Shown here: piece by piece, positions 7,569-17,255 of the stretch | Layout of the letters: each line of letters opens with the position of its first letter | How positions within the stretch are numbered: the stretch's first letter is position 1 | DNA from: Candidatus Bathyarchaeia archaeon | GTDB lineage: Archaea; Thermoproteota; Bathyarchaeia; Bathyarchaeales; Bathycorpusculaceae | DNA length: 28,529 bases | Reading direction: 5' to 3' | Assembly (NCBI GenBank): GCA_038894255.1 | Contig: JAWAPV010000001.1 | Coordinates: 1-28,529 of the forward strand | Translations under genes and position numbers: made by a program | The notes under the pieces: generated by a model | Database searches by the model: none | What the model was told of the DNA's origin: nothing | What the model saw: the letters and a program-made list of their open reading frames with translations, nothing else

Positions 7569-7946
7569 TCAGAAGAGTTCTATCCAGTTTCCGTCTGGGT
7601 CTTCGATGTAGGCCCACTTGCCTTCTGGGCTTTCCATTTTCAGTACAGGCGGATGCCCAGCCTTGCTCGCTTCTTTCAAAGCTTCTTCAAGATTTTCAAC
7701 CTTGAAAGCTAAATGGTCGAGTCCTTCACCCGCAACATATTTCGTGTTGTACGGGCTGTTCTTCTCATAATAGTTTAGTTCAAGAACAGATCCGCCTTCT
7801 TCGCCTTGCAAAGCCACGGTCTCGCCCTTGGTTTGCTCGATTCTGCCCCTGTTTATGACTTTCATACCAAGAAGTTTCGTGTAAAACGCAATAGACTTCT
7901 CAAGGTCGGTCACTCTAATCCCAACGTATGTGAATTTTGCTTTCAC
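7569..7946 (-). CDS. VOC / glyoxalase I-like protein
   Basis: YVGIRVTDLEKSIAFY..LLGM, LELNYY, GLDHLAFKV, YIEDPDGNWIEL. The likely start is GTG at 7946 after GGTG; the ORF-track extension to 8051 is non-homologous and runs through the promoter and repeat array. Confidence 0.9.
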   Translation of the reverse strand: MKAKFTYVGIRVTDLEKSIAFYTKLLGMKVINRGRIEQTKGETVALQGEEGGSVLELNYYEKNSPYNTKYVAGEGLDHLAFKVENLEEALKEASKAGHPPVLKMESPEGKWAYIEDPDGNWIELF

Positions 7947-7978
7947 ACTTAAACACCAACCAAACATCAACAACAGCA

Positions 7979-7986
7979 CATATATA
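7979..7986 (-). promoter_or_regulatory. Putative TATA box of the VOC gene
   Basis: TATATATG on the minus strand, ~33 bp upstream of GTG 7946. Confidence 0.55.
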
Positions 7987-8009
7987 CTTACCTCACACGC
8001 AAAAAAACT

Positions 8010-8048
8010 ACTGTACTGACAACTTGTATAGACAAACTGTATCAACAA
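8010..8048. repeat. 3x13-bp tandem pseudo-palindromic array, copy 1
   Basis: + strand ACTGTACTGACAA / CTTGTATAGACAA / ACTGTATCAACAA; matches the reverse complement of 16752-16790. Confidence 0.85.
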
Positions 8049-8078
8049 CAAAAGAGGGGGCCTAAAACCTTCGCACAG

Positions 8079-8576
8079 TCAAAGCTCAACGATGCTGGCT
8101 TCACGCTTAGCAGTGTCCAACACCGCAATCGTCGATTTTCCAGTCAGATAACCGCAAACCTCGCCTGGATTCACAACAAGCGTTTTTCCCTTGCGATAAA
8201 CTTCAGCATTGTGCGAATGCCCGTAGACTACAACGTCAAAGAACCCGCTGTCAACTAAAGCCTCCAAAAGCTCGCTGTTGCTTCCATGCAACAAAACCAT
8301 CCTCAAGCCGTTAACCGTCAAGTTGGCAAACTCGCCTCTGATTTCCAGCTTCGGATTTTCGCTGAACTTTTTCTTTAAAAACTCTCTTTCGCCATCGTTG
8401 TTTCCGAAAACTCCAACAAGCCTTGCCTTCAACTTCATAAACCGCGGAACAACAAAAGGCGCAACATAGTCTCCTGCGTGAAGCACAAGCTCAACGCTCA
8501 AACTGTTAAACTTCTCAACCGCCTTATCAACCATTGGCAAATTATCATGCGTATCTGACATCACACCAACAAGCAC
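8079..8576 (-). CDS. Metallophosphoesterase, YfcE/MJ0936 family
   Basis: SDTHDN, HAGD, GNND, LLHG, YGHSH and NPGE motifs. Likely GTG start at 8576 after GGTGA (the ORF track starts at 8606). Confidence 0.92.
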   Translation of the reverse strand: MLVGVMSDTHDNLPMVDKAVEKFNSLSVELVLHAGDYVAPFVVPRFMKLKARLVGVFGNNDGEREFLKKKFSENPKLEIRGEFANLTVNGLRMVLLHGSNSELLEALVDSGFFDVVVYGHSHNAEVYRKGKTLVVNPGEVCGYLTGKSTIAVLDTAKREASIVEL

Positions 8577-8757
8577 GCCTTTTTCACCAAAACAACCATA
8601 TTCCAACCATAGACAAATAAAACCTTTCCATCATTTTAATGCGAATTTTCCAGCGGATATTTTGTTTCTCGACATATTTGCCTTCGCGAAACACCGCTTA
8701 AAACGCGCCGATGAGGTTTCAATTATAGAAAACACTTCTAAAAGAGGAATATAGAAA

Positions 8758-9394: not shown

Positions 9395-10747
9395 TCATCG
9401 AACGCCAACGATGTTAACTGTTTTCTTGCGCAGCTTAACAGCGGCAACGGCCACAGCAACAATGGCAGTGACTCCCAGCAGAACCAGCAGTAGCCCTACT
9501 GGCAACCAAAGAGAGACGTTTTCAACGCCTATGGAAGGATCATGCTCAAGTGTGCTATCTCCAAAATAGGGATAGCCCAAAAACAGGCGCATGTGGTTTC
9601 CAGCAGGCTTGTAAGCAGCAGTAACGTTAACCACAGTTTTTTCTCCACTAGTCGAGTTTATGACTGTTGCGACATCAACGAAGTCAAAGAAGCCCGCCAA
9701 AGTTTGACTACCCTTTGCAAACTGCAGCCTGAAACGGTTTCGCAAGCGGTTGCGCCAGCCCAAAGCCTCTGCCTCATTCGCAAGTCTGTTCTGAATTCGA
9801 AGCCTTCTGCCCTCCGCAATCATGTCTGAAGTGCCCGAGCTAGCTTCAACAGGTTCTAAGATGTCGTCTGAACTTTTCTCTGGTACTGTTTGAGCTGTCA
9901 AATTCAAGTCTTGCTCGGCAACTGGGATATCCGTTATGTTTATTGAAGCGAGGTCTATCCACAAAGCCAAACCTGAACGCAGTTTCGGAGCGGTTATGCC
10001 GTAGTTTTTTTCTAGATCGCTAAAAAGTGCATCGAGCTTGTCTATGTTCCAAACCCAGCCGCCCACAACAAAGTCCATTTTGAGTTCACCAGCCTTCACA
10101 GTGTAATTATACAGCCCATAAACGTCTTCAACAGCGTCAGTACCGTAAAACCTGCAACGAATCACTACATTGTTTTCTGCAAAAGCAAACTTTGCTGGTG
10201 CGTCTTCGAGCGTAAAGTTGAAAGACAAGTACCATACTCCGTCAGGCCTAGACACGTTTGTTGGGCCCGAAAGTTTCCATTTGCACGCGCTGAAAGGCAA
10301 ATAGGCTGGATGCAAGCCGAGCATTGCAAGGCCGATGTGGTAGCGGATTCGGTTTTCTATCATAGTTCGGTGCTGGTGACCCGCGGCGTACTTTGCCATT
10401 AACCGTTCCTGCAGCGTAAGGCCGTCTGCTTCCCACTTCTGCGTGTAGTAGGCGTAGTCCAGCGTCAAATACTCGATTAAGCCCTTGTACTTTACGACGT
10501 ATATGTTGTCTGTGTCGTTTGCGTACCACCATAGAAACATAGGCTTCTTTCCGCCTGCTGGAAACAGTATGGTGATCAAGTCCGTTTGGATCTTGTACCA
10601 CATCCCGTTTCTGTATGGCTCGCAGATTACTTCTCCAGATTGGCTGTTTTCTGCATTTGCGTTGGATGCAAGCAAAGTTGGCATGGTTATTGAAAGCAGT
10701 AGAAACGCCAAGGATGCCGTTATTAACGAATTTTTCGTCTTTTTCAC
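9395..10747 (-). CDS. Secreted, C-terminally membrane-anchored surface glycoprotein of unknown function
   Basis: Signal peptide ending in ANA, beta-rich body with nine N-x-S/T sequons, HDPSIGV just before a C-terminal TM helix and a basic tail (KLRKK). GTG start after GGTGG. Confidence 0.8.
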   Translation of the reverse strand: MKKTKNSLITASLAFLLLSITMPTLLASNANAENSQSGEVICEPYRNGMWYKIQTDLITILFPAGGKKPMFLWWYANDTDNIYVVKYKGLIEYLTLDYAYYTQKWEADGLTLQERLMAKYAAGHQHRTMIENRIRYHIGLAMLGLHPAYLPFSACKWKLSGPTNVSRPDGVWYLSFNFTLEDAPAKFAFAENNVVIRCRFYGTDAVEDVYGLYNYTVKAGELKMDFVVGGWVWNIDKLDALFSDLEKNYGITAPKLRSGLALWIDLASINITDIPVAEQDLNLTAQTVPEKSSDDILEPVEASSGTSDMIAEGRRLRIQNRLANEAEALGWRNRLRNRFRLQFAKGSQTLAGFFDFVDVATVINSTSGEKTVVNVTAAYKPAGNHMRLFLGYPYFGDSTLEHDPSIGVENVSLWLPVGLLLVLLGVTAIVAVAVAAVKLRKKTVNIVGVR

Positions 10748-16344: not shown

Positions 16345-16740
16345 ATGTCGCTACCTTGCGAAATCGCACTCAAATGCCTTCTTCCCCCAGTCCGCGCCAT
16401 GCTAGCCAAAGAACTTATGGAAAAGCATAAGTTGAATCAAGCTGAAGTGGCGAAGATTCTTGGGGTCAGCCAACCCGCCGTCAGCCTTTATTGCAGAAAA
16501 CTGAGGGGCGTGTCTCTGAATTTAGATGAGGACGAGAAGATTATGGGGTTGGTTAAGGATTTTGCTGATGATTTGGCACGCGAGAGCATCCCGAGGAAGG
16601 TTTTCATTTTGAGGTTTTGCGAGATTTGCCGCGCGGTACGTGCTGAAGGTTTTCTTTGCGAGATTCATAAAAAAATTGATCCCAGCATTGCAGTTGAGGC
16701 GTGTGAGCTTTGCAAAACTGTTGGTGCGAGGTGTTTTTGA
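16345..16740 (+). CDS. Cys-rich HTH transcriptional regulator (COG2522-like)
   Basis: PCE..LP.VRAMLAKEL...LNQAEVAKILGVSQPAVSLY..KLRG; C-terminal FCEIC...CEIH...CELC. Confidence 0.82.
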   Translation: MSLPCEIALKCLLPPVRAMLAKELMEKHKLNQAEVAKILGVSQPAVSLYCRKLRGVSLNLDEDEKIMGLVKDFADDLARESIPRKVFILRFCEICRAVRAEGFLCEIHKKIDPSIAVEACELCKTVGARCF

Positions 16741-16751
16741 GGCCCTAGTGT

Positions 16752-16790
16752 CTGTTGATACGTTTTGTTGATACAACTTGTCTATACAGT
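16752..16790. repeat. 3x13-bp tandem pseudo-palindromic array, copy 2
   Basis: + strand CTGTTGATACGTT / TTGTTGATACAAC / TTGTCTATACAGT; an inverted match of 8010-8048. Confidence 0.85.
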
Positions 16791-16832
16791 GGATTTGACG
16801 TGCGATGCTGGAGAGAGGTTTTTGTGGTAGTG

Positions 16833-16840
16833 TTTATATG
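16833..16840 (+). promoter_or_regulatory. Putative TATA box of pfdB
   Basis: TTTATATG ~40 bp upstream of TTG 16881. Confidence 0.5.
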
Positions 16841-16880
16841 GTTCTTTGTGTTGTTGCTGTGCTGAATGGAAGGGTGCAAT

Positions 16881-17255
16881 TTGAGTGACGAACTTTCTCA
16901 GCTTCCTCCGCAGGTTCAGGAGCGGTTGTTGCGGTTGCAGCAGCTTCAGCAGACTCTTCAGTCGGTTTTGGCGCAGAAACAGCAGGTTGAGATTGAGTTG
17001 GCAGAGGTTAATCAAGCTTCAAGCGAGCTTGAGAAGCTTTCTGATGACGCTGTTATCTATAAGGCTACAGGTTCGCTTATGATAAAAGCGGAAAGACAAA
17101 AAGTGCTTGCCGAATTGAACGAGCGGAAGGATCTGCTGAACACGCGCGTGGGTATTCTGACCAAACAGGAAGAACGGATGCGGGTTCAGATCAAGGAAGT
17201 GCAGACTAAGCTTCAGCAAGACTTAAACCCTGTTCAGCCTTCCACACAGCCTTAA
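16881..17255 (+). CDS. pfdB: Prefoldin beta subunit
   Basis: LPPQVQE.L..LQQLQQ.LQ, VIYKATGSLMIK beta-hairpin, coiled coils. TTG 16881 after GGAAGGGTG is preferred over ATG 16866. Confidence 0.93.
   Translation: MSDELSQLPPQVQERLLRLQQLQQTLQSVLAQKQQVEIELAEVNQASSELEKLSDDAVIYKATGSLMIKAERQKVLAELNERKDLLNTRVGILTKQEERMRVQIKEVQTKLQQDLNPVQPSTQP

Follow-up and report, generated by a model that had tools for sequence, protein, structure and literature searches.

A dispersed array of three 13-bp direct repeats in a hot-spring Bathyarchaeia genome, probably an orphan operator of a small protein family of its relatives

The window, meaning the whole 28,529-nucleotide stretch of DNA analysed, is contig 1 of a metagenome-assembled genome (MAG) of a hot-spring Bathyarchaeia (1.29 Mb in 183 contigs, 91% complete). 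It carries two inverted copies of a short element, at 8011-8067 (minus strand) and 16734-16789 (plus strand). Copy 1 is preceded by a gene for a calcineurin-like metallophosphoesterase (8079-8606, minus strand; Metallophos_2, E = 1.6e-35) and followed by a glyoxalase/VOC gene (7569-7967, minus strand; E = 1.1e-19), which has its own TATA-like box, GTATATAT, at 7980-7987. Copy 2 lies between the genes for an HTH_3-type regulator (16345-16740, plus strand; E = 1e-5) and for prefoldin beta (16866-17255, plus strand; Prefoldin_2, E = 1.1e-18), the latter again having its own TATA box (16833-16839). The layout common to both is a TTTT(T/G)AGGCCC tag, a spacer of 6-7 nt and three TTGTnnATACA units with a period of exactly 13 bp.

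In copy 1, all on the minus strand, the tag occupies 8056-8067 (GGGGGCCTAAAA on the plus strand, TTTTAGGCCCCC in gene direction) and is separated by a 7-nt spacer (8049-8055) from units 1 to 3, which read in element orientation TTGTTGATACAG (8037-8048), TTGTCTATACAA (8024-8035) and TTGTCAGTACAG (8011-8022; 6 of 7 core positions). The GT-rich stretch and purine run on the 5' side of the tag (8068-8090, minus strand; ..CTGTGCGAAGG) are loosely common to other copies and to a second repeat family, class 2, and overlap the stop codon of the upstream gene. That stop (8079-8081) is about 30 bp ahead of unit 1, and the TATA-like box is 23 bp past unit 3. In copy 2, on the plus strand, the tag (16734-16745; TTTTTGAGGCCC) contains the TGA stop of the regulator gene (16738-16740) and a 6-nt spacer leads to the units CTGTTGATACGT (16752-16763), TTGTTGATACAA (16765-16776) and TTGTCTATACAG (16778-16789), with about 43 bp between unit 3 and the prefoldin TATA box. 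Neither copy has a TATA box directly at unit 1. An earlier note, made by reading the letters of this DNA, had described the triple units, tag and stop and TATA spacing of copy 1 just as they are found here; the inverted second array that it matched to copy 1 at 22 of 24 positions is likewise returned by a repeat finder (arms 8025-8048 and 16765-16788, 24 nt, 92% complementary). It had seen no further copy in the window, which is correct, and loose 12-mers of the form TTGTnnnnACAA show no enrichment there (20 observed against 19.6 expected), yet 13 more copies lie elsewhere in the genome.

A profile derived from five copies and applied to the whole assembly detects 15 copies on 14 contigs, with E-values from 5e-16 to 0.02. 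Seven strict triple arrays exist genome-wide, where 50 local shuffles give 0.02 on average, and successive good units are found as 18 pairs at 13-bp spacing compared with none or one at each other spacing from 9 to 19. Three units are present in ten of the 15 copies, while the remaining five have lost unit 3; between five and ten copies retain all three units with 6-7 of the 7 core positions and an exact 13-bp register. The tag is conserved in every copy. Across the set, unit 1 is mostly TTGTTGATACG and unit 3 mostly TTGTAGATACA or TTGTCTATACA, and such array-position-specific variants point to common descent of the copies. At least one more array, differently flanked and absent from the MAG, is present in the DNA run of the source sample (loose end at 16753). 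Taken as sequence, this regularity supports the view that the several units make up a genuine site, not a random one, and of a type to which a protein would bind cooperatively.

The matrix of 39 units reads T-T-G-T-(T/C/A)-(G/T)-A-T-A-C-(A/G)-n-T. Its positions 5 and 6 are variable while the mirror positions, A7 (38 of 39) and T8 (37 of 39), are near-fixed, and the units stand head to tail, which implies an oriented direct repeat rather than a palindromic operator. The units had been taken for pseudo-palindromes in the earlier reading, whereas the matrix is asymmetric. The accompanying comparison with GntR/HutC operators fares no better. The central unit TTGTATAGACAA does resemble the TGTATATACA-type pseudo-palindrome that is the consensus of HutC/GntR operators, but those are single inverted repeats as opposed to direct repeats at a 13-bp period; furthermore, no GntR-family gene (PF00392, E ≤ 0.01) was found in the 91%-complete genome, while 14 of 14 control genomes were matched. 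Direct repeats at a fixed period, here three units at 13 bp, are also a feature of iterons and of parC/parS-like centromeres, but none of the 15 copies has a partition or replication gene beside it, be it a replication initiator or a partition ATPase, the flanks being housekeeping or unrelated. The description of the site as iteron-like and cooperative thus fits its architecture, whereas the centromere or replication role suggested along with it is not supported.

The element is strictly intergenic, but its orientation relative to the flanking genes varies. Relative to the gene upstream, eight of the 15 copies are co-oriented and start 0-70 nt past its stop, and four are divergent. Two copies sit in antisense orientation between genes arranged in tandem. 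On the downstream side, a convergent gene is found in seven cases and a co-oriented gene start within about 130 nt in roughly half. The neighbours, among them genes for an RNase Z-like protein, rpl3/pyrE, SecE, aCPSF1, an M48 peptidase, a HIT protein and a cupin, have no functional theme. In the case of the cupin (contig C43, minus strand, about 8010-8065), the array has two units and stands 5' of the gene with the spacing and GAGGT box seen at the P0001 genes described below, and the cupin itself begins MKAF.., resembling the P0001 N-terminus; either it has captured a P0001 5' region or this is coincidence. A literature search on the unit sequences returned nothing relevant.

The exact triple pattern was scanned over 185,579 genomes, one per species. 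Bathyarchaeia are where such arrays concentrate: among the 80 loci listed, 37 have titles of the Bathyarchaeia or Bathyarchaeota type, the remainder being isolated single cases from various bacteria. In the array-bearing MAGs of this class, the copies have in common a core of about 70 bp, consisting of a GC palindrome and three units, with the palindrome varying between genomes by paired substitutions (CCGACCGGTCGG, CCTACCGGTAGG and ACCTATAGGT). Many of these copies are followed, some 11 nt later, by a 112-aa gene beginning MPKMFKAFRF, here called P0001, and the decayed remains of a P0001 N-terminus follow other, solo arrays. Inspection of A-type P0001 loci from at least 14 lineages, at 45-100% identity, reveals a C-rich or palindromic tag and an array of three units, reduced to two or irregular in a few. 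The last unit usually ends no more than about 20 nt before the P0001 start codon, and 8-16 nt before it in most; in L054 the distance is about 20 nt, measured to the start used in the family alignment. The surroundings of P0001 vary, comprising an integrase, a serine recombinase, a methylase with a Csa1-like nuclease, a HEPN/MNT pair or housekeeping genes. One locus elsewhere adjoins a ParB_N protein, but this pairing is not recurrent. A viral origin of the arrays was rejected, the ten viral pattern matches examined being unrelated exact tandem repeats, and no relatives of P0001 were found in IMG/VR. Three phage contigs carry intergenic exact triple 13-bp repeats (L203:1689-1722, L209:2708-2741 and L201:10805-10838; CTGGTATATACTT x3, CGTGTATACGTCT x3), which are analogous operator-like arrays, not homologues.

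The distribution of arrays among relatives is patchy (3 of 31 genomes, then 5 of 301). Of 300 further genomes drawn evenly from the class, G016, G209, G303 and G019 have arrays, and all four encode P0001, compared with five of the 296 genomes without strict arrays (Fisher p = 3.8e-7, a value uncorrected for kinship, such that related genomes overstate the independence of the observations). Two of the latter, G111 and G236, have degenerate arrays or arrays with a 12-bp period. A divergent subfamily B comprises the proteins of the other three, G003, G262 and G280, and of the second gene of G303, with an N-terminus of the type ..QIGVWVD.. or similar in place of ..KAFRF... Upstream of these genes, ahead of the start codon, are three GGTAA(C/T) units at a period of 12-14 nt, and the C-rich or palindromic tag is retained in G003, G262 and at the second gene of G303. 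Subfamily B having a unit type of its own, protein and site covary. This joint change is the strongest argument that P0001 reads the units, and also argues against the units being merely TATA boxes. The earlier note had staked the reality of the element on more arrays and conservation being found; the outcome favours a real family, with a different partner, the P0001 gene, from the one that it proposed.

The P0001 proteins are 111-118 aa in length. The family has 87 relatives, all unnamed, and the named organisms among them are Bathyarchaeia; no Pfam domain is detected at threshold. The N-terminus follows an alternating strand, helix, G-x-T-x-T turn and helix pattern, as in ribbon-helix-helix (RHH) proteins. 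Neighbours in a language-model atlas include RHH_5, NikA-like, RHH_3 and RHH_1 clusters, and a few members have sub-threshold Pfam matches to RHH_5 (E = 0.11) and FitA-like RHH (E = 0.15). Alignment with hhalign to RHH_1 proteins of relatives places helix A and the turn in register (P = 0.02). The AlphaFold monomer (mean pLDDT 76.5) has residues 1-8 disordered, two helices around an NGYT turn and a helical C-terminal domain, and its best Foldseek matches are Arc, CopG, DinJ, CdbA and NikA, all non-significant (E = 0.2-5). Profile comparison with single RHH proteins of the source genome gave no signal, and a sequence search of the PDB with the P0001 profile returned nothing relevant. These leads agree with one another but are weak, none being significant alone, and an RHH fold of the P0001 N-terminus is a likely candidate. 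The idea that the gene is the left end of an IS200/IS605 element, MPKMFKAFRF being a TnpB-like start, was rejected, as the gene is only 112 aa long and neither Y1 nor TnpB was found. Both the P0001 family and the family of array elements appear to be undescribed.

At some P0001 loci, a predicted core promoter coincides with the array. Unit 1 of the G019 locus is TTTATATAA, with the ATG inside unit 3, 31 nt downstream, as expected of a leaderless promoter, while in L158 and G280 a TATA box stands directly ahead of unit 1. With TATA at or directly before unit 1, the units fill the interval between TATA and start. The element of the window is read, with reasonable though not high confidence, as an orphan copy of an autoregulatory operator array of P0001-type proteins. 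In this module a T-run and a tag that is C-rich or palindromic are followed, after a short spacer, by three 13-bp units TTGTnnATAC(A/G)nn in head-to-tail order. P0001 would bind the three units cooperatively through its RHH-like N-terminal part and, by covering the stretch between TATA and start, block recruitment of RNA polymerase, resulting in negative autoregulation. Orphan copies would have arisen where the cassette was duplicated or relocated and the P0001 gene subsequently lost, and the approximately 15 in the intergenic DNA of this genome would be bound in trans only if the cell makes a P0001-type protein. As the two window copies lie 23 and about 43 bp on the 5' side of their neighbours' own TATA boxes, the repressor geometry is inapplicable to these two.

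Tandem-repeat operators are known from small RHH autoregulators and centromere-binding proteins, such as CopG of pMV158, omega of pSM19035, ParG/ParR and Arc/Mnt. The arrays resemble these in that a packed set of repeats lies directly over the promoter of a small-protein gene (at the P0001 loci of relatives), in the strand-helix-turn-helix pattern of the P0001 N-terminus, in a repeat period that is not a whole helical turn, and in the joint change of protein and repeat (KAFRF with TGTnnATAC, QIGVWVD with GGTAAY). They differ in that P0001, for which the RHH fold is a candidate assignment, has an additional, unmatched domain of about 65 aa at the C-terminus, has no partner ParA, toxin or replication gene, and is accompanied by a tag, C-rich or palindromic, that is conserved; orphan copies are numerous and spread across the chromosome, and only orphans were found in this genome. 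Among archaeal repressors, MDR1, LrpA, Phr and NrpR bind between TATA and start site and block polymerase recruitment. The units at P0001 loci occupy the same interval, but those repressors are helix-turn-helix or winged-helix proteins acting at one or two palindromic sites, in contrast to a small protein unrelated to them, with three direct repeats. Transcription control is almost unstudied in the Bathyarchaeia, an abundant and uncultured class. The association ties a small unnamed protein family to a defined site of three 13-bp units in two specificity classes, making a directly testable protein-DNA pair, and shows operator-like modules scattering through a compact archaeal genome.

Searches of the 91%-complete assembly with tblastn, phmmer and two profiles, using three to four kinds of query, detected no homologue of P0001 from either subfamily, and beside its copies no remains of a P0001 reading frame are visible. 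This leaves the copies without their proposed binder in this assembly, and they may be inert. As a further array from the source DNA lies outside the MAG, the P0001 gene of this organism may likewise be in unbinned DNA, or it may have been lost. A metagenome scan with the tag and unit pattern gave no match, but a second scan yielded contig L163, which shares synteny and about 70% nucleotide identity with contig C69 of this genome. On L163 the unit types of this genome (TGTTGATACA and TGTCTATACA) are directly ahead of a P0001 gene, and the corresponding spot in this genome holds glyA. On the 3' side of P0001 in L163 (124-3304) are a DNA methylase (N6_N4_Mtase), a Csa1-like nuclease and a gene of no known function. 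This gene content suggests a restriction-modification-like or defence-like island and raises the idea that P0001 could be a controller protein of such cassettes.

The reading that fares best among the alternatives, though considered unlikely, is that the copies are functionless debris: relics of a P0001 cassette, once mobile or duplicating, or of something MITE-like, decaying neutrally and unbound. This would account for an assembly with sites and no P0001 gene, for the graded series of copies from intact to degenerate with unit 3 lost from a third of them, and for the patchy occurrence in relatives; the orientation-independent contexts, including convergent gene ends, and the position of copies at synteny breakpoints are also in its favour. 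Neutral decay is harder to reconcile with the five to ten copies that keep three units in exact register, and the array outside the MAG leaves room for an unbinned P0001 gene. Descent from a MITE or insertion-sequence remnant is not supported: the 15-copy alignment has no terminal inverted repeats, no target-site duplication is apparent (flank score 7.7 for own against 7.8 for cross comparisons), and neither the Y1_Tnp nor the TnpB zinc-ribbon domain of a cognate transposase is found in the genome. There are seven matches to tyrosine recombinases, none of which adjoins a copy. In a size of 60-90 bp, strictly intergenic placement, multiple copies and lineage restriction, the element is like REP/BIME, BOX and RUP repeats, as it is in lying at transcription-unit edges and synteny breakpoints with no transposase attached. 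It is unlike REP sequences in not being palindromic in this genome, in which the REP-associated Y1 transposase was not found, and unlike REP and BOX in having a parent context, the 5' region of the P0001 gene family.

The tag is not confined to the arrays. In the form TTTTAG(G/C)CCCC it also heads the second dispersed family, class 2, of which there are about 18 copies in this genome and none in the window (for instance C19:9711-9732, C41:1886-1907 and C91:4897-4919). In class 2 the tag abuts TTATATATAGG and a short conserved stretch, TTCAACATTGTT, follows; read on the opposite strand, the order is TATA, G5 and CTAAAA, and in the C91 copy the ATG of an endonuclease III gene lies at leaderless distance. 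Five other genomes of the family, all without arrays, contain class 2 as well, with up to 33 copies (G009). Class 2 looks like a promoter cassette, to judge by this layout, and because the tag heads it too, with TATA and a leaderless ATG on the other strand, the tag appears as a promoter-proximal block common to the two modules.

It is conceivable, but improbable, that the units are themselves promoter elements, three tandem TATA-box variants for TBP/TFB with the C-rich tag in the position of the BRE, and the copies portable promoters. Several lineages have units that are canonical TATA boxes (TGTTTATATG, TGTATATACA and TTTATATAA), TGTTTATATGG is also the prefoldin TATA of this genome, and both the junction of tag and TTATATATAGG in class 2 and the P0001-like spacing and Shine-Dalgarno context of the C43 array ahead of the cupin gene fit a promoter. 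Against this, the window units TTGATACA, TCTATACA and TCAGTACA make poor TATA boxes, intact P0001 genes such as that of L099 stand behind arrays with no TATA-like unit, and the GGTAAY units of subfamily B are not TATA-like, yet the design of three units at about 13 nt is retained. The seven copies facing a convergent gene would also be misplaced as promoters. A proposal of much the same low probability retains P0001 as the binder and gives the scattered arrays a genome-wide function: the 39-bp pads at transcription-unit borders and synteny breakpoints might, when coated by the protein, act as a roadblock or insulator between convergent or tandem genes, or might be sites of cassette exchange, with the tag as a common docking or recombination block.

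The regulon proposed in the earlier note, in which the arrays would be the upstream activating or repressing site of a trans factor linking the VOC and prefoldin genes in a protein-damage response, now seems very improbable. Both window copies are indeed co-oriented with, and 5' of, a gene and precede its TATA box, and about half of all copies have a co-oriented gene start nearby. However, the 15 copies lie beside unrelated genes, seven before the end of a convergent one, and no GntR-family regulator was found. The prefoldin-beta orthologues and their flanks were compared from 19 relatives. The promoter GAAAATGCTTAATTAA, about 30 nt ahead of the start, is kept in these, and the four-gene operon on its 3' side is syntenic across the order; the upstream gene differs at each locus, and an array is present upstream in none of the 19, leaving the regulon unsupported. 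This implies that copy 2 lies where synteny breaks and does not belong to a conserved control region of prefoldin. Conservation was absent where it had been expected, at prefoldin, and found instead ahead of P0001 genes in related genomes. Since the sites are present in an assembly in which no P0001 gene was found, the arrays do not form a switch dedicated to the two genes beside them; for annotation, such an array beside a gene is no evidence of regulon membership. At the prefoldin locus (window 16800-16865 and loci L113-L125), GAAAATGCTTAATTAA is followed by about 30 nt to ..GCTGTGCAG ATG, conserved across the order, and synteny stops exactly at the promoter. Two relatives, L117 and L119, have a CCCCCTCCC block just 5' of it.

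An element acting at the RNA level is the least credible of these explanations, be it a small RNA, a terminator module or a motif for protein binding in the 3' UTR, UGUnnAUA being similar to Pumilio sites: the eight copies just past a co-oriented stop, the asymmetry of the unit and a contig from an RNA library that crosses copy 1 (7919-8189) at the depth of the upstream gene would suit it, but four copies are divergent from the upstream gene, two are antisense between tandem genes, no stable or conserved structure is predicted (mean z of -0.35 and -0.71; alifold energy -0.5 kcal/mol), Rfam has no match in the window or in nine related loci, and the units at P0001 loci lie at or 5' of the predicted start site, so that most of the array would lie outside the mRNA. 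The contig is compatible with read-through across copy 1 or with DNA carry-over, as the library may contain DNA, and the RNA evidence consists of assembled contigs with neither strand nor ends, from which transcript boundaries are unreadable. A PUF domain search matched nothing in this genome, nor in the control genomes, and so is uninformative. C/D-box and H/ACA sRNAs were rejected, no C/D boxes being visible by eye and Rfam being silent, and a scan of copy 1 for sigma-70 promoters and hairpin terminators gave nothing, as expected for an archaeon.

Two further observations concern other genes of this genome. On contig C104 (9-224), a 71-aa RHH_1 protein is encoded directly 5' of, and overlapping, an ftsZ-like gene, as is known for CdrS-type regulators of cell division in Halobacteria. 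In the window, the gene at 9395-10747 (minus strand), probably encoding a surface-layer protein, has an assembler depth of about 660-1100 in RNA library X5 compared with 0-12 for its neighbours, and hence is very highly expressed. Its X5 contig is a circular permutation, with the joint running from 10757 to 9608, which is most likely an assembly effect of internal repeats.
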